A DNA stretch of 64,000 bases from a virus (taxonomy: Duplodnaviria; Heunggongvirae; Uroviricota; Caudoviricetes): IMG/VR virus record IMGVR_UViG_3300025364_000002. One strand, written 5' to 3'. The translations under genes and the position numbers were made by a program. The notes under the pieces were generated by a model, which was not told the origin of the DNA, ran no database searches, and was given only the letters and a program-made list of their open reading frames with translations. Positions 2,654-46,309 of the stretch are shown in pieces. Numbering within the stretch: position 1 is the stretch's first letter; the number at the start of each line of letters is the position of its first letter.

Positions 2654-3877
2654 TCAGTTTTCAAGGTGTTGCAAAACCGTATCGAGGAAGCTGTTTGACC
2701 AACCACCATCAACATGCCGCTTTGACTGAATCCAATCGACAAGACCGCTTACACGGCCCTGGTACTGCTCCATCATCGGCGCCATCCATCCCTTTCGGGC
2801 CTGAACAGCAAGCGCAAACATCTTACGATGCTCCTTGGAGCCCTTCTCATGGATCCAACCCCGACTTTCGTTCCATGCTGCAACCTCTGCAAGACAAGCC
2901 TCGTAAACATCACGATAGTTTGCCACCAGGTCACGGAATGATGCCTGCAACTTGTGTGCCCGATCCACAACGTGGTCCGGGAATAGCGGCAGTGCATCGT
3001 CGAGCTTCTCCAAAAGAAGCAACTCCACGAGTCCCCGAGGAGACTTCAATACCGAGTCACGAACCTTGTTCAGGGCAAGATAGCCGGCATTCTTAATCTT
3101 GATACGGCGAAAATGCTGGTCGCAGACCACAATTCCTTCGTGCTTTATCGGATCACATGAAGAAACAAAATCAACAAGTTCAGAAACTGAACCAAAACGA
3201 TAACGCTCTGCTGTTGGCGTCTTCACCTGAGCTTGAACAAAGGCCGGACGAAGTTCCTTACCTGTTGCCGTTTTGCGAGCAGCAAGCAAAGTAATGCTGT
3301 GTCCTTCATATTCAACAACGATACGATTCGCAGGACTGGTTAATTCAAACATGTAAGTTGTGTCACGAAATAGTTGTGCTGATGTCCACGATTCAAAATC
3401 TTTGCCGACAGTTTCTTCTAATGCTTTCTCAAAAAGGGTGCGAAAAGTATATTCACCAGATCCATCCACTGGAAGGTTTGCTTCTGGCAATGAGCGAGTT
3501 GCAACATGCCATTCATTCTTCACATCATCATAATAAACGATACAAAGCGTTCCGTCCATCTTTTCATAGAAGGAAGTTGCCGGATGATTAAAATCAACTT
3601 CGGCAGCCGCAGACTGTCCATAGTTGAAAAAACGATCAAATGATCGAGCCAATATAACTGTATCACCAATTGGACGAGTCAAATCAATCAACTCTTGAAT
3701 TTTGGTTGGTCGAAGAATAAGACCACGGCACTGCTGTGCCAGTAAGTCATCTTCACGAGATTCAATATGGTCATAGTTCAATGAAAACTTGTACTCGTGC
3801 ACACGAGCTTTGACGCCATGCTCACGCTCCAAGTCTTCAAGAGACTTGGTTTTCAAATACTCACGAACAAAAACCAT
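2654..3877 (-). CDS. ATP-dependent RNA ligase, Rnl1-like (covalent nucleotidyltransferase superfamily)
   Basis: Motif I KxDG (EKMDGT), motif IV EGIVV, motif V KIKN in correct order in a 407-aa protein. Confidence 0.75.
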   Translation of the reverse strand: MVFVREYLKTKSLEDLEREHGVKARVHEYKFSLNYDHIESREDDLLAQQCRGLILRPTKIQELIDLTRPIGDTVILARSFDRFFNYGQSAAAEVDFNHPATSFYEKMDGTLCIVYYDDVKNEWHVATRSLPEANLPVDGSGEYTFRTLFEKALEETVGKDFESWTSAQLFRDTTYMFELTSPANRIVVEYEGHSITLLAARKTATGKELRPAFVQAQVKTPTAERYRFGSVSELVDFVSSCDPIKHEGIVVCDQHFRRIKIKNAGYLALNKVRDSVLKSPRGLVELLLLEKLDDALPLFPDHVVDRAHKLQASFRDLVANYRDVYEACLAEVAAWNESRGWIHEKGSKEHRKMFALAVQARKGWMAPMMEQYQGRVSGLVDWIQSKRHVDGGWSNSFLDTVLQHLEN

Positions 3878-11926: not shown

Positions 11927-12559
11927 CTAACAATAACACTCATACATTGGTTTACGACACCTGTTACAGGTTCTGGAATTCTTCCTTTTGAAGATTTCCC
12001 AGCAAACTTTGCAATAAGTTCCTGCAAAATGACGACCTACCGGTGGATTAGGAAGTTCTTTTTTGCAGGTCGAGCAAATATACAAGTCTTCTTTGGCGAA
12101 CTTAATCAAGTTAAATAGCGTTACCACGAAAAGAGGGGCTCCTTCTTCAACCAAATTATCAAAACTGGAAATGCCAAAGGGACCTTCCTTACCCAAGGCT
12201 GACATGCCATCGTCCGCCCAACGGTCAAAGACTATTGTGGTGTTTGGAAAACCTTCTTTATTCTCACAAGATACAGAAACCATTATAGTAACATAATTTT
12301 TTTTATCCCCCCCAGGTGGTTTTTCTCTACCAACACATTCACCAGTAACAACATTGTAGGAAAGTGTGCGATTGACAGTGACAGAACGATATTTGGCGGG
12401 GTGATACGGGTTTTCCCTTAAAGAAAGGATTTTTTCCTTGGCCTGACTCATTACCCAAATTGATGGGCTTTGATCACCAATCATGCATCGTGTACATAAT
12501 TCGTATTCGCCATAACCTGACCAACATTGGTTTTCACAATTTTTGCAAATATTTGGCAT
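11927..12559 (-). CDS. Cys-rich zinc-ribbon protein
   Basis: Several CxxC pairs at both termini (CKNCENQC, CTRC ... CSTCKK, CKVC, CNRCRK...CYC). Confidence 0.5.
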   Translation of the reverse strand: MPNICKNCENQCWSGYGEYELCTRCMIGDQSPSIWVMSQAKEKILSLRENPYHPAKYRSVTVNRTLSYNVVTGECVGREKPPGGDKKNYVTIMVSVSCENKEGFPNTTIVFDRWADDGMSALGKEGPFGISSFDNLVEEGAPLFVVTLFNLIKFAKEDLYICSTCKKELPNPPVGRHFAGTYCKVCWEIFKRKNSRTCNRCRKPMYECYC

Positions 12560-40272: not shown

Positions 40273-41520
40273 TCAGCCGGTCCTTTTAGTTAAATCAAAA
40301 TGCGTTTCAATGAAGTTGATAACCATTTCAGGATCAGCCGTTGAGCGGAAAAGAACGTTAGGACCATGTTTGTCTAACATGACAGCCCCAATCTTATCCG
40401 ACTCAAATAGTTTAATACCACTAGCAGTGTTTTGTCCACACTGATGCGAACCACACTCAAAGAACTTTTGAGAAACCTTAGGAATAACATTTTTAGTTTT
40501 CATTTCGCAATGAAAATGAACAACGCAATCAAATTGATCATATTGTCGAAGCAATTCAAATTGACTTCGTACACCCGCACTAGGCTTTCCACCAATCGAT
40601 TCGACAATTTCATTGTCAGAAAATGACACCATGGCAAGATCAAGCCCACCAGGTTCATTATAATTCTGTTTTCTTCTCGAAGAGAAGATACACTTTTCAT
40701 TAACCAAGAATCCAAAATGACCAACGGTTTTGCCATCGAAAGCTTGGTAAGCCCCTCGTTTTACACAATGTTCAACTACGGTCTTCAGCGTAGAAGGAGC
40801 TGTATGCCATGCAATGGGTACATCGGCCACAACTCTTGTTCTTGTAAATTCATTTGTTGAGCGAGCTAATGTAATATCGATTAATTCATTCAATGCTTCA
40901 AAACGATCAGTGGTTTTTCCGTAGGCAGCCATTTCTGGCGTAAGAATCATATTCATGCGAGTATGAACATCATTAGCGAGGACAAGATTGCAACTGTTTT
41001 GCTTTAACAGTTTCATACCTGCTTCAAACTGCTCCTCTTCGGTTGCGCCAGCTGTTGTTTTAAAGCCTACCAAAAAAATGTCCTTCCTCGTTTTGCGAAT
41101 ACGACCAATGATCTTATCCGCTGGTTTCATTGAAAGCATGTGTAAACCATTTGATGTCTTCAGCCTTGGTTGTTCTTTTCCAGACTCGGTTACTCCAACA
41201 TTATATTCATTTCCAGCGAGCACATTACCCTCAAAATCACAGAGTGCAGCACTCATGAAGAGGATTTTTGGTGCTGGATCATCCAGCAAATTGTCAATAA
41301 GCTTGGAAATGTCATCGTTTGTTTCAAGCGAATCCCCACCAGCCATTCTTGTTAGGTGGAGTTGAATTTTTCGATTTGAATCCTTAGATAGGATTAAATT
41401 CCTGAGGATTTTCGCTGTTTTGCCGTAGGCTGGAGCGCTTAGCGCTAAATGTGGCCTGATATGGAAAACAGTTCCTCCACCGATAATATGAATTTCTTTG
41501 GTAGCTTCTTTTGGCGACAT
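40273..41520 (-). CDS. Two-domain protein: N-terminal DFP/CoaB-like (phosphopantothenate-cysteine ligase fold) domain plus an unassigned C-terminal domain
   Basis: GGGTVFHIRPHLALSAPAYGKTA, MSAALCDF and FLVGFKTTAGATEEE...NLVLANDV parallel the CoaB segments (RFIxNxSSGKMG, AAAVADY, LVGFAAET...ANDV). Confidence 0.45.
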   Translation of the reverse strand: MSPKEATKEIHIIGGGTVFHIRPHLALSAPAYGKTAKILRNLILSKDSNRKIQLHLTRMAGGDSLETNDDISKLIDNLLDDPAPKILFMSAALCDFEGNVLAGNEYNVGVTESGKEQPRLKTSNGLHMLSMKPADKIIGRIRKTRKDIFLVGFKTTAGATEEEQFEAGMKLLKQNSCNLVLANDVHTRMNMILTPEMAAYGKTTDRFEALNELIDITLARSTNEFTRTRVVADVPIAWHTAPSTLKTVVEHCVKRGAYQAFDGKTVGHFGFLVNEKCIFSSRRKQNYNEPGGLDLAMVSFSDNEIVESIGGKPSAGVRSQFELLRQYDQFDCVVHFHCEMKTKNVIPKVSQKFFECGSHQCGQNTASGIKLFESDKIGAVMLDKHGPNVLFRSTADPEMVINFIETHFDLTKRTG

Positions 41521-41588
41521 GTTCCACCCCTCTAAGGGTTAGAGTGTTTACCACAAACCTACCAAGCCAGTGAAACTTTTTGAAGTGA

Positions 41589-42143
41589 TTATCTTGACCG
41601 GCGTCGTATTACTACTTGTTGGTCAACAATTGTTGATAACAAATGGGGAGTTGGATCTAACAGCTGTGGAGGTTTTGGGAATTGATAACTCCAAGTAACT
41701 CGCTTTCGTGTTCCAATGGAATATAGTTCTAGATGTAGCATGCAGGTATCTTTTCGTCGCTTTTTCTTATTAATTCGGATTACGTTGCCTACAATCTCCC
41801 CAGCTTTTACCTCTTGGCCAATTTTTAGACCATTTCTCTCCTTCACGTTACAATAAGCAACAACACCAGTTTTGCCTTCAATTAAAATAACCCTGGTTCT
41901 ATTGAGCCAGGGTTTGTTTTCTTTATGTTTGCTAAAATCTCTTATGCTTACAACAATTCCATCTTCTACTGCGGCGAGTGGTTGATTATGATCACAAAAT
42001 AAATCAACGCCAGTATGACGATTATATGGACGCTTCGCTCCGAAACCTGCTGGATGATATTTGCCGTTGGGCAATGCCCAAGTGCATCCGGGGAGCGGTG
42101 ATTTCCAATTTGATTGGGTATCAGTATTAATTGTTTTATTCAT
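41589..42143 (-). CDS. M23 family metallopeptidase, copy 2
   Basis: HTGVDLF...MLHLELY; paralogue of 10532..11077. Confidence 0.75.
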   Translation of the reverse strand: MNKTINTDTQSNWKSPLPGCTWALPNGKYHPAGFGAKRPYNRHTGVDLFCDHNQPLAAVEDGIVVSIRDFSKHKENKPWLNRTRVILIEGKTGVVAYCNVKERNGLKIGQEVKAGEIVGNVIRINKKKRRKDTCMLHLELYSIGTRKRVTWSYQFPKPPQLLDPTPHLLSTIVDQQVVIRRRSR

Positions 42144-42483
42144 GTCTAATCTCTTCTAAGTCCTGCTCAAAGAATATTAGTTTTCTTTTTCCTATTAGTA
42201 ATTCAACAGCTGGTTCATGTTCTCTTGATAGAAATGCAACTTGAACCTTTCTTAACTCCAGACCTATTAAGTCGGTAAAAATGTACTCAACCGGCAAAAA
42301 CTCTGTGTTGACCAAATATATTGTTTCATCTTCATCGAGTCCAAAAATGGACAATGTTTCAACTGGTTCTTTTCGCTGAGCGGCTAATATCGGATTGACA
42401 AAATCAGTTTTACTTATAGCCTCAAAAACTATAAGCAATGGATCACGGATGGAAAGTTTGCATCTGTAAAGTGCCATAGCCAT
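42136..42483 (-). CDS. Hypothetical protein
   Basis: 115-aa ORF. Confidence 0.4.
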   Translation of the reverse strand: MAMALYRCKLSIRDPLLIVFEAISKTDFVNPILAAQRKEPVETLSIFGLDEDETIYLVNTEFLPVEYIFTDLIGLELRKVQVAFLSREHEPAVELLIGKRKLIFFEQDLEEIRHE

Positions 42484-43246
42484 CTAAACGCTTTTTCATA
42501 ATTGCTACAGCATCTGGGTTTTCATCAACCAATGTTACGTTTCGTCCATGCATAGCCCCCGCCTCGCCAAGAGTGCCTGAACCCGCAAAGAAATCCAAAA
42601 GGTGTTCTCCAGGATTTGAGTGTACTTTTACTATGCGTTCGATTATAGCCATTGGTTTTTGAGTTGGGTAGCCTAGTCTTTCTTTACCGTTTGTTGGAAC
42701 GATAGTGTTCCACCAAACATCTGTCGGTGTTTTGCCTCGCTTAGCCTTCTCGGCACCAACAAGACCCGGAGCCATATATGGGATGCGATCTATCGCATCG
42801 TAGTTATAAGTATATTTTTTCAAGTCTTTTACATACCAAAGAATGTTATCATGTTTACAGGGCCACTTGGTTTTAGGTCTTCCGCCATAATCATACGCCC
42901 AAATTATTTCATTTTTGAACTTTTCTCTACCAAAAATTTTATCACAAAGCACTTTTACATAGTGAATTTCACGGTAATCCATATGAATAAAAAATGAACC
43001 ATCATCTGTAAGCAATCTTTTTGCTTCTTCAATTCTTGGCTTTATCCAATCTATAAAATCATCGAATTTATCTTTGTATGAACCATGATGACTTGATTGA
43101 ACCTTTTTTGTATTAAACGGAGGATCTATTACAATTAGATTAAATTTTTTATCAGGCAACGATCGCAATATTGGCAAATTGTCCCCTTGATAAATTTTAA
43201 TTGTTGGCATACAAAAAGTTTCCTTCTTTACTGTTTCTTTTGCCAT
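42443..43246 (-). CDS. DNA methyltransferase (N6-adenine/N4-cytosine class, DPPF motif)
   Basis: IVIDPPFN catalytic motif and C-terminal AdoMet-binding FFAGSGT. Confidence 0.8.
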   Translation of the reverse strand: MAKETVKKETFCMPTIKIYQGDNLPILRSLPDKKFNLIVIDPPFNTKKVQSSHHGSYKDKFDDFIDWIKPRIEEAKRLLTDDGSFFIHMDYREIHYVKVLCDKIFGREKFKNEIIWAYDYGGRPKTKWPCKHDNILWYVKDLKKYTYNYDAIDRIPYMAPGLVGAEKAKRGKTPTDVWWNTIVPTNGKERLGYPTQKPMAIIERIVKVHSNPGEHLLDFFAGSGTLGEAGAMHGRNVTLVDENPDAVAIMKKRLDGYGTLQMQTFHP

Positions 43247-43973
43247 TGATGATAGCTGAAATTACTGGCTGTGGAATTCCTAATACTTTTGCTGCTTCAT
43301 ATTGGCTTTCAAAAAATTCGGATGAACCATCGGAACGAATGTAAACTATTCGTCTTTTATTTCGTTTGGGGCTTTGTGCACGAGACATAGCTTTTTCAAC
43401 ATCTTCCATTTTATGAACAAAGGTCCAACCTTTAGCATATGTGGCACGACCTTTTAGAACATTTCTAATTGCTTTTTCGTTACAACCAAGAGCTTTTGCT
43501 GCTTTTTTTTGTGCGGCAAATTTTTTTATTTCTTTTGTTTTAACATTTATAGCTATCACTGCTTTACTGCCTGGTCTATTTGCAGCGATTTTTTTACAAG
43601 TTTCTAGGGGTAACTTCTTACCCAATTTCCTTTTACGCTGCTTTTCCTTTGTTTTTTTAGAAGTCTTTACTCCCTTTCGTCCACCTCGACCACCCTTATC
43701 AGAATTAATCATATTTAAGTTCGGCCAGAATTGTTGAATGTATTCAAATTCAGCTATGTAAGCCTCGTCTTCAGTTGAGAACTCTTTTATTAATTCTATT
43801 GATATACTATCTTTATATTTTTTAAGCCAATTCAACTTTCTTTTACGTTTTTTATCATAAAAATGTTGTTTTAACCGTTTTTCTAAAGTTTGGCCTGTAA
43901 CTCCGATATAAAATTTAGGACTTTTCGATGAAATGATTTTATAAAGCTTGTGCATATTAATATGTACGCACAT
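43197..43973 (-). mobile_element. GIY-YIG homing endonuclease with C-terminal NUMOD-like DNA-binding repeats (probable true start at 43955)
   Basis: KLYKIISSKSPKFYIGVTGQTLEKRLKQH (GIY-YIG core with catalytic R...H); repeated AAKxLG...(I)xNxLKG helix motifs at C-terminus. Confidence 0.75.
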
Positions 43974-43981
43974 AACCTAAA

Positions 43982-44107
43982 GTTATAAGGAGGATCAATA
44001 TAAATAAGAGAAAAAGTCTCTTTGGGTAACGTTTTAAGAAACAGGAGATTGTCTCCCTGAATAATGTTTATTTTTGTACTCATATCACAACAATGCAAGT
44101 AATACAA
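43982..44107 (-). pseudogene. N-terminal remnant (42 aa, through DPPYN) of a second DPPY-type DNA methyltransferase, truncated at the homing-endonuclease insertion
   Basis: INIIQGDNLLFLKTLPKETFSLIYIDPPYN aligns with IKIYQGDNLPILRSLPDKKFNLIVIDPPFN of the intact MTase downstream. Confidence 0.55.
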
Positions 44108-44546
44108 TAATCCAAAGAAAAGTTAGGTGTAAAATTTGATCTACAGCAATAAACAAAATTGCATGTACAGGCGACTCTTTGAACAACTTACCAAACATCT
44201 TTTTAGAAGACAAATACCGGTCTTCTCCTGGGCCTGAGTTCTTTGATAGTTCTGGAACTTTTCTTACGAACTTTGCCCACAAAAAAACCGGTATATAGGT
44301 ATCAATGATGAAATGAGAGAGAAAGAGGGTTAACAACGAAATGGGTAAGCCCCATCCACCAATACCTAACAAGAGTATAAATGGAACAAATGCAGCTGTG
44401 TAAATTATACAGTGTCTTCCACGGACAGAGAAGTCATGGTGTTTGTTGGTTGCTTCATCATGCGTTTGGAACAACCAATCAGCAAAAAAGTGAACAAAAG
44501 CAAGTAATGAAAAAACACCACCAGCTAATGCAAAAGTCTCTAACAT
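44085..44546 (-). CDS. Polytopic membrane protein
   Basis: Several hydrophobic helices in 153 aa. Confidence 0.45.
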   Translation of the reverse strand: MLETFALAGGVFSLLAFVHFFADWLFQTHDEATNKHHDFSVRGRHCIIYTAAFVPFILLLGIGGWGLPISLLTLFLSHFIIDTYIPVFLWAKFVRKVPELSKNSGPGEDRYLSSKKMFGKLFKESPVHAILFIAVDQILHLTFLWIIVLLALL

Positions 44547-44625
44547 ATTTTTATTCCTTTATTGGGAAAGCCACAAACTCATTTATACTTAAGAGGGAAC
44601 TACCTTAGAGAGAGGGTTTAATAAA

Positions 44626-45030
44626 ATGGCTATTAAGACTACAATCGGACCAAAAGGCGTTGTTTCCGAAAGAATTGCAGGTACCAGCGACGTACTCGTT
44701 GTTGATGTTGAGTCTCCACGTGAAAATGTAAGAACCATTACATCAGGCTCAGGTGTTATATCCGTAACTGGTGGAACTAACTTATTCATTGCTCCAGTTA
44801 CCCCTACCGCTTCTCTTCCTGGCGTTGGAAGTGAAGAGGTTGGAACTCGTGTTCTTCTTATGAAGGATGATAACACTGCTACAGTTCTTGTTTCAGGAAC
44901 CAACCCAATGAACGCTGCCGACACTTTAGTATTGAATGATGCATTTGCACACCTTGAACTACTTGCTGTTAAAGGTGACGACGATGGCTCATTTGTTTGG
45001 CATGTTCTTCACACCTCAGGCGTACTCTGA
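44626..45030 (+). CDS. Gly/Thr/Val-rich beta-type small protein on the opposite strand (possible structural or highly expressed moron-like gene)
   Basis: 134-aa ORF with SD (AGAGAGGG) 8 nt upstream and a strong terminator immediately after. Confidence 0.6.
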   Translation: MAIKTTIGPKGVVSERIAGTSDVLVVDVESPRENVRTITSGSGVISVTGGTNLFIAPVTPTASLPGVGSEEVGTRVLLMKDDNTATVLVSGTNPMNAADTLVLNDAFAHLELLAVKGDDDGSFVWHVLHTSGVL

Positions 45031-45050
45031 TTTAATCATATACCTCTCTT

Positions 45051-45080
45051 AGCCGCTCTTTCGAGAGCGGCTTTTGGTGC
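45051..45080 (+). terminator. Rho-independent terminator (agccgctct-ttcg-agagcggct + TTTTGG)
   Basis: 9-bp GC-rich stem and T-run read directly. Confidence 0.7.
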
Positions 45081-45144
45081 TTAAGCTTTTTTGTTTTGAT
45101 AATTCGCTTGAAACTTATCTTTTGTCTCTATTGGGCAATTTGGT

Positions 45145-45681
45145 TTAATGCCAAGTGGGTTTGGGGTGGAATGTTTTGCAAACCACACACCAACACCATC
45201 TGAAACCAAACGAAAAAAATTGCCTAGGCCCTGTCGTTTCTGCGGGTAACAATTCATGAGGCGTTCTATCTGTCATCCAATAGAGATAATTCGGTTTCAT
45301 TACTTCGTTTTTGGCATTGGGCTGGGAACAACTGCCCATATGATCTACATCATAGGTAATACAATCCCAAACACGGCAGCGACCGTCAGTTGACGCCATA
45401 TAAATTCCCTCGCTCGTGCCCCAACCACCACCCCAACCAGCTCGATTGGTTCCGTCTGTGTGAATTCCTGGCCTGCGAAGAGTTTTGTCTTTTCTTACCA
45501 TACCTTCATGAACTGTTAGGTAAACAATCGAACCCTCTTTTAGAGGGCATTTATCAATCATTGATTGATAATGACTAAGGAAAGATGGAACGGAGTTGGG
45601 ATCGCCAAAAATAATTGGCATCATGTTTACATGAATGTTATTACTTTTAGGAAAAGTTACACTTTCAATTTCTCTATACAT
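45145..45681 (-). CDS. Hypothetical protein, possibly a metal-dependent oxygenase-like fold (HTDG...H)
   Basis: RPGIHTDG motif; weak. Confidence 0.35.
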   Translation of the reverse strand: MYREIESVTFPKSNNIHVNMMPIIFGDPNSVPSFLSHYQSMIDKCPLKEGSIVYLTVHEGMVRKDKTLRRPGIHTDGTNRAGWGGGWGTSEGIYMASTDGRCRVWDCITYDVDHMGSCSQPNAKNEVMKPNYLYWMTDRTPHELLPAETTGPRQFFSFGFRWCWCVVCKTFHPKPTWH

Positions 45682-45883
45682 GCTTACCCAAAATTTTGGC
45701 GGTTAATGGGATTGATACCCACTTTGTGCCGGTCATCCTCCCCCGAGCGTATGTGGCACCATTCATCGGGATCTTAGGGACCTCCACGTCTGGAAAAAAT
45801 CAGCCGTACAATGAGCTACTAAAGCACTCTGATATTTTTCACGAACCGTAGTGTAACCGCCAAAGACTACTATATGCTAACAG

Positions 45884-46309
45884 CTAAGCAACATATACTA
45901 AACCATAATATTTGCCGACAGTTCTCTTGAACTTCCATTCGCCAAGCAAAACTCCATAAGTGCAGGCAGACTTTTGAAGAGCATGGAGAAAATCGGAATC
46001 ACGAATATAAAACAACTGTTTCGTTTCTGTATGTTCCAGAATTAACTGAGTGGTGGAATTGCAACTAATAAATCGTTCAACTTTGAAAGCGGCTTTGAAT
46101 GGAGAATTATCTTTCCAGGTGACATTTAGATTATTATATCTTTTTCTGTTGACATAGTCAAAGTAACTAACGACGGAAACGTTCTTACCGCACGTCCACG
46201 GGACTCCCTTTTGGGTCCATGGGATTTGATAATCTTCACTTTTTTTATTCATTTGTTTCGAGCTGCCCCCTAACCATCCTATCTTTTCGACCTTTATATT
46301 TTCGGTCAT
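45884..46309 (-). CDS. Paralogue family member A (family defined in this window: ...KPFKAxF...LLGEWxFKR...)
   Basis: Shares SPFKAAFKVERF...GVLLGEWKFKRTVGKYYGLVYVA with 49740..50144 and 50125..50535. Confidence 0.5.
   Translation of the reverse strand: MTENIKVEKIGWLGGSSKQMNKKSEDYQIPWTQKGVPWTCGKNVSVVSYFDYVNRKRYNNLNVTWKDNSPFKAAFKVERFISCNSTTQLILEHTETKQLFYIRDSDFLHALQKSACTYGVLLGEWKFKRTVGKYYGLVYVA

Follow-up and report, generated by a model that had tools for sequence, protein, structure and literature searches.

Free-standing homing endonuclease genes (HEGs) of phages sit between genes, and their products cut a conserved neighbouring gene at a distance; they are inherited through double-strand-break repair with co-conversion of the flank (PMC2988022). 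The T4-type GIY-YIG enzymes SegA-G belong to this group, and for SegF and SegG the process is known as "intronless homing" (PMC2988022). Intron homing in T4 also works when homology is restricted to one side of the break, in which case the second junction is formed illegitimately at microhomology (Parker et al., 1999, as summarized in PMC2988022). In fungal mitochondria, mobile endonuclease open reading frames (ORFs) carry a foreign C-terminus (Allomyces macrogynus atp6; Glomus atp6, atp9, cox2 and nad3). The duplicate end is 64–81% identical to the native end at the nucleotide level, the native end remains as a leftover with 91–98% identity to the sister species, and the gene stays functional (PMC3630166). 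HEGs between pieces of a gene are known from mobE in the ribonucleotide reductase gene of Aeromonas phage Aeh1 (PMC2988022) and from fractured genes with split inteins (PMC2677866). Here, a locus with features of several of these systems was analyzed at about positions 41500–45500 of a 64,000-nt stretch of Caudoviricetes DNA (IMGVR_UViG_3300025364_000002; in the following, the window). In this locus, a GIY-YIG HEG is located between a 5′ fragment of a DNA methylase gene and a complete methylase gene.

The HEG of the window shares several traits with the T4 Seg genes. It likewise combines an N-terminal GIY-YIG domain with C-terminal DNA-binding modules, lies between genes beside a conserved, presumed target and is absent in close relatives, and by analogy distal cleavage with co-conversion of the flank would be expected for it too. 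It differs in the retention of a 34-codon fragment of the target upstream, which clean two-sided homing would not leave. In addition, it presumably targets a DNA methylase gene, it resides in an uncultured jumbo phage (contig of 438 kb) and, compared to the characterized Seg enzymes, its protein is too dissimilar for HMMER to detect I-TevI directly. With one-sided T4 intron homing the locus shares the topology, i.e. homology on one side of the break, an illegitimate other junction and the gain of an element. That laboratory system was engineered and contains an intron, whereas the window would represent a natural, fixed event with a free-standing HEG, whose junction microhomology is not identifiable without the donor sequence.

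The fungal atp6-type hybrids also consist of an endonuclease ORF, a duplicated and divergent gene end (61% nucleotide identity between the copies in the window) and a displaced leftover. The arrangement in the window is mirrored, with a duplicated 5′ end and an upstream stump, and it is found in a phage instead of a mitochondrion. The fungal ORF is fused in frame to the host gene, whereas the HEG of the window lies in the −1 frame with a start of its own, and the foreign origin of one copy is only weakly indicated in the window (codon number, a singleton excess with p = 0.044 and G+C content at third codon positions, GC3). As in mobE and the fractured genes, a HEG is found between gene pieces, but in those systems both complementary halves are needed, whereas the downstream gene of the window is complete and the upstream piece redundant.

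The Methylase/HEG Locus of the Window

The correct annotation of the locus comprises a presumably functional methylase, a HEG and a pseudogene fragment, with neither a split gene nor a tandem paralogue. The origin of this arrangement is best explained, with a probability of about 60%, by the gain of a free-standing HEG through one-sided, illegitimate repair of a double-strand break near the DPPY codons of the methylase gene, whereby the 5′ part of the now working gene would have come with the HEG. Nearly all genes of the window and all elements of the locus are located on the minus strand.

The HEG (43197..43955, minus strand) encodes a protein of 252 amino acids (aa). Pfam matches were found to GIY-YIG (PF01541, E 2.7e-10, residues 9–84), to I-HmuI_NUMOD-like (PF22083, 5e-15, in two stretches), to NUMOD1 and to HTH_3, and the protein matches PHROG 314 (phrog_314), "homing endonuclease", with 1.2e-24. 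The two NUMOD-like stretches and the helix-turn-helix (HTH) domain form C-terminal DNA-binding modules distinct from the GIY-YIG domain. A weak match to the C-terminal domain of I-HmuI (PDB 1u3e) was detected as well, and the score against the NCBIfam subfamily "group I intron endonuclease" (TIGR01453) was 50 bits, which is below the cutoff of 56 bits. In an alignment with 25 homologues and I-TevI, the residues Y5, Y16, G18, R27, H31, E69 and N84 were invariant. By every testable sequence criterion the gene belongs to the free-standing GIY-YIG class, as the sequence-only reading of the window had proposed, and with all canonical GIY-YIG residues and the DNA-binding modules in place the enzyme looks functional.

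The HEG ORF opens at ATG 43973, 8 nt past the remnant. In many homologues the start corresponds to ATG 43955 (MHKLYKI…), which is therefore the likely start codon of the HEG and lies 26 nt past the remnant; the distance of 9–27 nt given earlier was essentially right. The nearest homologues are 37–47% identical (E 1e-19) and none exceeds 47%. No match was obtained in 50,697 phage records by tblastn with the HEG, by tblastn with the neighbouring DUF3307 protein or by blastn with positions 41500–45500, and the lineage is absent from isolate phages. The HEG was not found among IMG/VR contigs, and in a word-based search of 5.8 billion proteins it matched nothing but its own sequence.

The methylase remnant (43982..44083, minus strand; MSTKINIIQGDNLLFLKTLPKETFSLIYIDPPYN) comprises 34 intact codons and was recognized by an N-terminus profile of the family, by phmmer and by the gene start of the relatives. 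As listed, its ORF (44107..43883, 66 aa) opens at a TTG within the upstream gene. The true start is ATG 44083, because the relatives lacking the HEG share a conserved TGAtATG junction with the stop codon of the DUF3307 gene; the fragment was previously taken to be 42 aa long. Its 34 codons equal the length of the same segment in the relatives, and the last codon lies one past the DPPY catalytic motif (M…DPPYN).

When the remnant is aligned to the start of the intact methylase, 18 of 30 aligned residues match (BLOSUM62 local score 95), and 60 of 99 nucleotides (60.6%) are identical with a length difference of one codon. A phmmer search with the intact methylase against all ORFs of the window found only the protein itself and the remnant (E = 8e-8). 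Against the profile of the family N-terminus (33 residues), the two copies score almost equally, the intact one with 60.8 bits and the remnant with 58.7 bits. Judged from these comparisons, the remnant is a genuine methylase N-terminus, as the sequence-only reading had proposed, the resemblance being far beyond chance. Since the copies are only 61% identical at the nucleotide level, they do not stem from a recent internal duplication. A search of 5.8 billion proteins for sequences with three 5-residue words in common with the 66-aa remnant ORF gave no candidate, so that the native allele could not be recovered.

The complete methylase gene (42443..43210, minus strand; 255 aa) lies in an ORF that is open from 43246. 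It starts with the second copy of the N-terminal segment (43112..43210; 33 codons; MPTIKIYQGDNLPILRSLPDKKFNLIVIDPPFN). The protein matches PF01555 (N6_N4_Mtase) with 1.5e-46, covering profile positions 2–221 of 221. Motif IV (DPPF) is located at residues 29–32 and motif I (FFAGSGT) at residues 207–213, and D29, P31, F208, G210 and G212 are invariant across the family alignment. On this basis the gene encodes a complete beta-class N6/N4 DNA methyltransferase of full length for its family. The best solved relative is M.RsrI (1.4e-31, aligned over residues 10–235). Metagenomic homologues number in the thousands; homologues are labelled only "adenine-specific" in the sources, and scores for NCBIfam equivalogs are below the cutoffs.

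The last 4 codons and the stop codon of the HEG overlap the methylase start by 13 nt, and a Shine-Dalgarno-like GAAGGAA is located inside the 3′ end of the HEG, 9–10 nt 5′ of the start of the intact methylase. The sole substitution between the window and a contig from the Joint Genome Institute (JGI) in this region (L010) is an A/T difference at 43201 within this overlap, which turns MPTIK of the methylase into MPTFK.

Comparison With Relatives Lacking the HEG

Six syntenic contigs without the HEG (L003–L006, L008 and L009), representing three sequence types from six sequencing runs, are collinear with the window and contain the closest homologues of its methylase (80–86% aa identity). Their gene order is tRNA-synthetase-like, DUF3307, 256-aa methylase, 113-aa ORF, M23 peptidase, DFP-like, MT-A70 and SAM-lyase-like. 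In 6 of 6 contigs there is one methylase only, which starts 1–2 nt past the DUF3307 stop codon. The junction is TGAtATG in L003–L006 and L009, as before the remnant of the window, and L008 carries the variant TGAgtATG. In a distant lineage (L017 and L018), whose DUF3307 protein is 57% identical, DUF3307 is also followed by a single methylase without a HEG. DUF3307 relatives in JGI metagenomes are at most 57% identical; they confirm the adjacency with the methylase and are too distant to polarize the duplication.

Measured against the sister phages, the window carries 873 additional bp (44083 to 43210), made up of the HEG and a second methylase start of 33–34 codons. The single methylase of the relatives begins exactly where the remnant begins, and the arrangement is therefore a gain of 873 bp without a decayed paralogue. 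The alignment with phages lacking the endonuclease, which the sequence-only reading had suggested as a check, hence bears out its idea of a frozen invasion event, with HEG and stump in the window and HEG-less syntenic sisters, and does not support its idea of two tandem methylase genes with a decayed disrupted copy.

The arrangement of the window recurs with 0–2 differences in seven further contigs of up to 438 kb (JGI, ENA and Logan) and is therefore real and no assembly artefact. Presence of the HEG is polymorphic, with six contigs lacking it and eight copies bearing it (the window and the seven contigs). The contigs with the HEG are one clonal jumbo-phage population. The 80 best-matching IMG/VR loci of the methylase family include no case of a nuclease gene enclosed by two hits of the N-terminus profile, a pattern that the window, used as a control, does show. 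The event thus resembles an isolated scar more than a cassette that spreads.

Other HEGs differ between these phages. In L003 and L005, a PTH2 gene is preceded by a GIY-YIG/NUMOD3 gene for 279 aa (L003 1–258); the L003 enzyme is only distantly similar to the HEG of the window (local score 63), and L004 contains a LAGLIDADG gene (12336–12455). The HEG content of this phage group is fluid.

Which N-Terminal Copy Is Native

The first 102 nt of the gene are hypervariable, as the sister phages are 56–70% identical among themselves in this part at the nucleotide level, compared to 75–81% in the rest of the gene and in the flanks. When each N-terminus was compared with 120 family members, the best matches differed by only 1–3 residues, too few to be informative. 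The low conservation of the first 34 codons could be due to a lack of constraint or, at a HEG target, to repeated exchange or to evasion.

For the methylase body and its flanking genes, about 75–81% nucleotide identity to the relatives suggests a native origin. After the DPPFN codons, the body of the window gene is 77–81% identical to the sisters, which are about 80% identical among themselves. A difference between the two starts was found in the codon count, which is 33 in the working copy and 34 in both the remnant and the sister phages. In nt 102–180, i.e. the 78 nt after DPPFN, 9 of 18 lineage-specific substitutions fall on the lineage of the window, compared to 23 of 94 in the rest of the gene (Fisher p = 0.044). 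The GC3 of the working gene over nt 0–360 is 0.19–0.24, near that of the HEG (0.23, with an overall low GC of 0.33), and the sister phages show 0.33–0.42 over nt 102–360. Beyond nt 360, where the identity among all sequences is 85–95%, these values come together, and this part would be the obvious crossover zone. These weak indications suggest that the remnant is native and that the 5′ part of the working gene was probably imported with the HEG.

Gain of the HEG and Alternative Explanations

The proposed gain could have proceeded as follows. In a donor phage, the HEG would have been located directly upstream of the donor methylase, the usual spot for a free-standing HEG beside its target. During co-infection, the enzyme would have cut the resident methylase at or close to the DPPY codons, which lie some 100 bp away from the insertion point of the HEG itself. 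The right break end would then have invaded the conserved methylase body of the donor and copied leftwards through the donor 5′ segment and the HEG. The left break end, without matching homology upstream of the HEG, would have been joined illegitimately, so that the 34 resident codons stayed as a stump whose 3′ end would mark the break point or the limit of resection. Homology of the resident type would now abut the presumed cut site on both sides, and the block could home into related phages without disrupting their methylase.

Several points weigh against this one-sided gain. The end of the remnant is the sole indication of the cleavage site. No donor was found, and the nearest homologue of the HEG adjoins an intein-bearing chaperonin gene and no methylase. 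In the first 102 nt, the remnant (57–71%) and the intact copy (59–64%) are about equally distant from the sisters, and the signals from composition and singleton substitutions are weak (p ≈ 0.04), mutually dependent and derived from three relatives. As all contigs with the HEG are clonal, they give no population-level signal on decay of or selection on the stump.

An import in the opposite sense is unlikely. The intact methylase would then be wholly native, and a block of remnant and HEG would stem from a related donor whose methylase the HEG had destroyed, having recombined on its left side via DUF3307 homology and been joined illegitimately to the resident ATG on its right side. Topology alone cannot polarize a structure of the type A-HEG-A′, and the N-terminal 102 nt are too variable to mark the native copy; the lack of a close remnant match among the 5.8 billion proteins also agrees with a foreign block. 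The remnant, however, retains the native start junction and the native length of 34 codons, and the 13-nt overlap of HEG and methylase with GAAGGAA in the HEG looks evolved and not freshly illegitimate. In addition, the 5′ 180–360 nt of the intact gene are AT-rich like the HEG and show an excess of unique changes. The model of two tandem paralogous methylases, in which the HEG was inserted after the DPPY of the first and the rest of this copy was deleted later, is very unlikely. The N-terminal copies have diverged (61% nucleotide identity) as old paralogues would, and the remnant stops right after a catalytic motif, a typical HEG target. Against this, every examined relative without the HEG has a single methylase, in the three sister types of about 80% nucleotide identity as well as in the lineage with 57% DUF3307 identity, and in 0 of 80 viral loci of the family a tandem pair in this layout was found. 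Duplication, insertion and a deletion ending exactly at the overlap of HEG stop and methylase start would be needed, whereas the one-sided gain needs one event.

There is hardly any probability left for a split gene, with the remnant as exon 1 and its connection to the methylase body through either a HEG-housing group I intron or split inteins, although the HEG resembles intron-encoded enzymes of the I-TevI type (TIGR01453, 50 bits) and another member of the methylase family bears a probable intein (L090, see below). An Rfam scan of 41500–45500 at E≤10, i.e. the search for a group I intron core that had been suggested earlier, detected no Intron_gpI or other plausible RNA family. Non-ORF sequence is limited to 26 nt on the 5′ side of the HEG and is lacking on its 3′ side, which leaves no room for a ribozyme core of at least 200 nt. 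A splice from …CCU after the DPP codons to UUU after …CCG in the second copy would be in frame and fit the U/G splice-site rule, but this coincidence is expected by chance in several registers, and the 99 nt after the HEG encode a true family N-terminus (60.8 bits). The tail after DPPYN starts with F and not with C or S, and neither intein motifs nor a Pfam intein match were found in it. The downstream methylase is complete, with its own ATG, Shine-Dalgarno-like sequence and DPPF, and needs no N-terminal partner, so that the sequence-only alternative of two exons of one gene is not supported. A restriction-modification-like pair, in which the GIY-YIG protein is a restriction endonuclease partnering the adjacent methylase, is extremely improbable as well. 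The two genes are adjacent, co-oriented and overlapping, and GIY-YIG restriction enzymes such as Eco29kI and Hpy188I exist. However, a GIY-YIG domain with two NUMOD-like stretches and an HTH is the architecture of a homing endonuclease, the methylase is solitary in all relatives without co-inheritance of a nuclease, and the methylase-gene fragment flanking the nuclease marks an insertion and not an operon partner.

Expression Signals at the Remnant/HEG Junction

The remnant ORF continues past its last intact codon with an out-of-frame read-through tail of 32 codons and a stop codon (43883..43981, minus strand), for which no homology was found. This tail passes over the start codon of the HEG, in the +1 register with respect to the HEG. 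A fusion of remnant and HEG by a −1 frameshift was considered and rejected, as two stop codons lie in the HEG frame just 5′ of the ATG and no slippery site is present.

An RNA hairpin is predicted over the junction (43939..43988, minus strand) with a minimum free energy (MFE) of −11.8 kcal/mol (z = −2.47); 3 of 200 shuffled sequences fold equally well. Its inner stem (43972..43949) pairs the start AUG of the HEG (43955..43953). Hairpins control the translation of I-TevI, segB and mobE (PMC2988022), whose start codons lie in a hairpin as predicted for the HEG of the window, and by analogy a regulatory role of the junction hairpin is suggested. The stump is probably still translated via coupling to the DUF3307 stop codon. 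Its translation over the HEG start, together with the pairing of the start codon, suggests that HEG expression would be kept low.

The 12-bp palindrome CATATTAATATG highlighted by the sequence-only reading does exist (43953..43964, inside the predicted hairpin) but carries no statistical weight. The window contains 29 perfect 12-bp palindromes compared to 19 ± 4.6 in shuffled sequences, and the probability of at least one in an AT-rich region of 1.7 kb is 0.45, so that the palindrome was rejected as a signal.

Within the remnant, a terminator-like hairpin (CAGGGAGAcaaTCTCCTG) followed by TTTCTT is located at 44042–44059 on the minus strand (MFE −6.8 kcal/mol, z = −1.8). The stem is absent at the matching position of the intact copy. 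This weak hairpin may be due to chance or may act as a mild brake on read-through into the HEG. A scan for sigma-70 promoters showed no excess (11 sites compared to 8.6 ± 4.0 expected).

Neighbouring Genes

Upstream of the remnant lies the gene of a DUF3307 membrane protein (44085..44546, minus strand; 153 aa; Pfam PF11750, PHROG 2470). Its stop codon TGA (44087..44085) is separated from the remnant ATG by one base, which forms the junction TGAtATG. The nucleotide identity of this gene to the HEG-less relatives is about 74–81%. Downstream, the methylase is followed by an ORF of unknown function (42136..42483, minus strand; 115 aa) and an M23 peptidase gene (41589..42143, minus strand), which form the right-hand native flank based on synteny. 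They are 75–77% and about 76–78% identical to the sister phages, respectively.

In L004, an additional OMP-decarboxylase-like gene (2848–3492) is located between a thioesterase-like gene and the next ORF, which is absent in L003 and in the window (~45700–46250). This difference is small gene-content flux near the locus and unrelated to the HEG.

Other Possibly Invaded or Broken Methylase Genes

Three further methylase loci with interrupted or incomplete genes were found. In IMGVR_UViG_3300037851_000494 (L090, 2998–4791), the family methylase is an ORF of 597 aa with about 340 residues inserted between "GKTLTD" and "CWWHTIVPTNGKE". The insert separates TPTD from VWW of a conserved motif, begins with Cys and ends with …VVCGN, followed by C. 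From its sequence it looks like an intein, and its size would fit an internal homing-endonuclease domain. The methylase family would therefore have been invaded by a second kind of selfish element at another conserved motif.

In Tenacibaculum phage PTm1 (AP019524.1 158226–159473; L026 2501–3748), a 39-aa "DNA methyltransferase" ending just past DPPF is annotated together with a hypothetical protein and a 260-aa methyltransferase. For this methylase, which belongs to a related family, a frameshifted pseudogene or sequencing errors are the probable explanation. It was rejected as an analogue, since the pieces lie in three frames without a HEG or an Rfam intron match, which is an unrelated decay. 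In IMGVR_UViG_3300044959_000348 (L065, 2777–3639), the family methylase lacks the N-terminal DPPY segment and is preceded by a 48-aa ORF ending in …LRYAGGKSNESE. This ORF resembles the start of a Dam-type (D12 class) methylase, and the locus may be recombinant or wrecked.

Significance for HEG Invasion of Phage Genes

The arrangement is a tidy but ordinary scar of a known element type, and its main yield is the corrected annotation, a predicted target site and a probable example of one-sided homing. It would provide a clean natural example of a free-standing HEG entering a phage genome with homology on one side. The stump would mark the rough break point and gives a testable prediction of the target, namely the DPPY codons, which are conserved in a widespread family of methylases. 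These orphan methylases attract selfish elements, with a HEG here and a putative intein at another motif in a different phage.

It is quite unlikely that the HEG and the replacement 5′ end of 33 codons form a self-contained mobile cassette which enters methylase genes at the DPPY codons without inactivating them. The new start and N-terminus brought along would keep the methylase active, the stump would offer homology that reaches the cut site and could serve in another round of homing, and the hypervariable first 100 nt of the methylase family would be the trace of repeated exchanges. If this were true and recurrent, HEGs could invade coding genes by means of a replacement 5′ end, with no need for an intron or intein. 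The cassette would then be the phage 5′-end counterpart of the fungal "endonuclease ORF + foreign C-terminus" and a third harmless way for HEGs to reside in a coding gene, besides introns and inteins.

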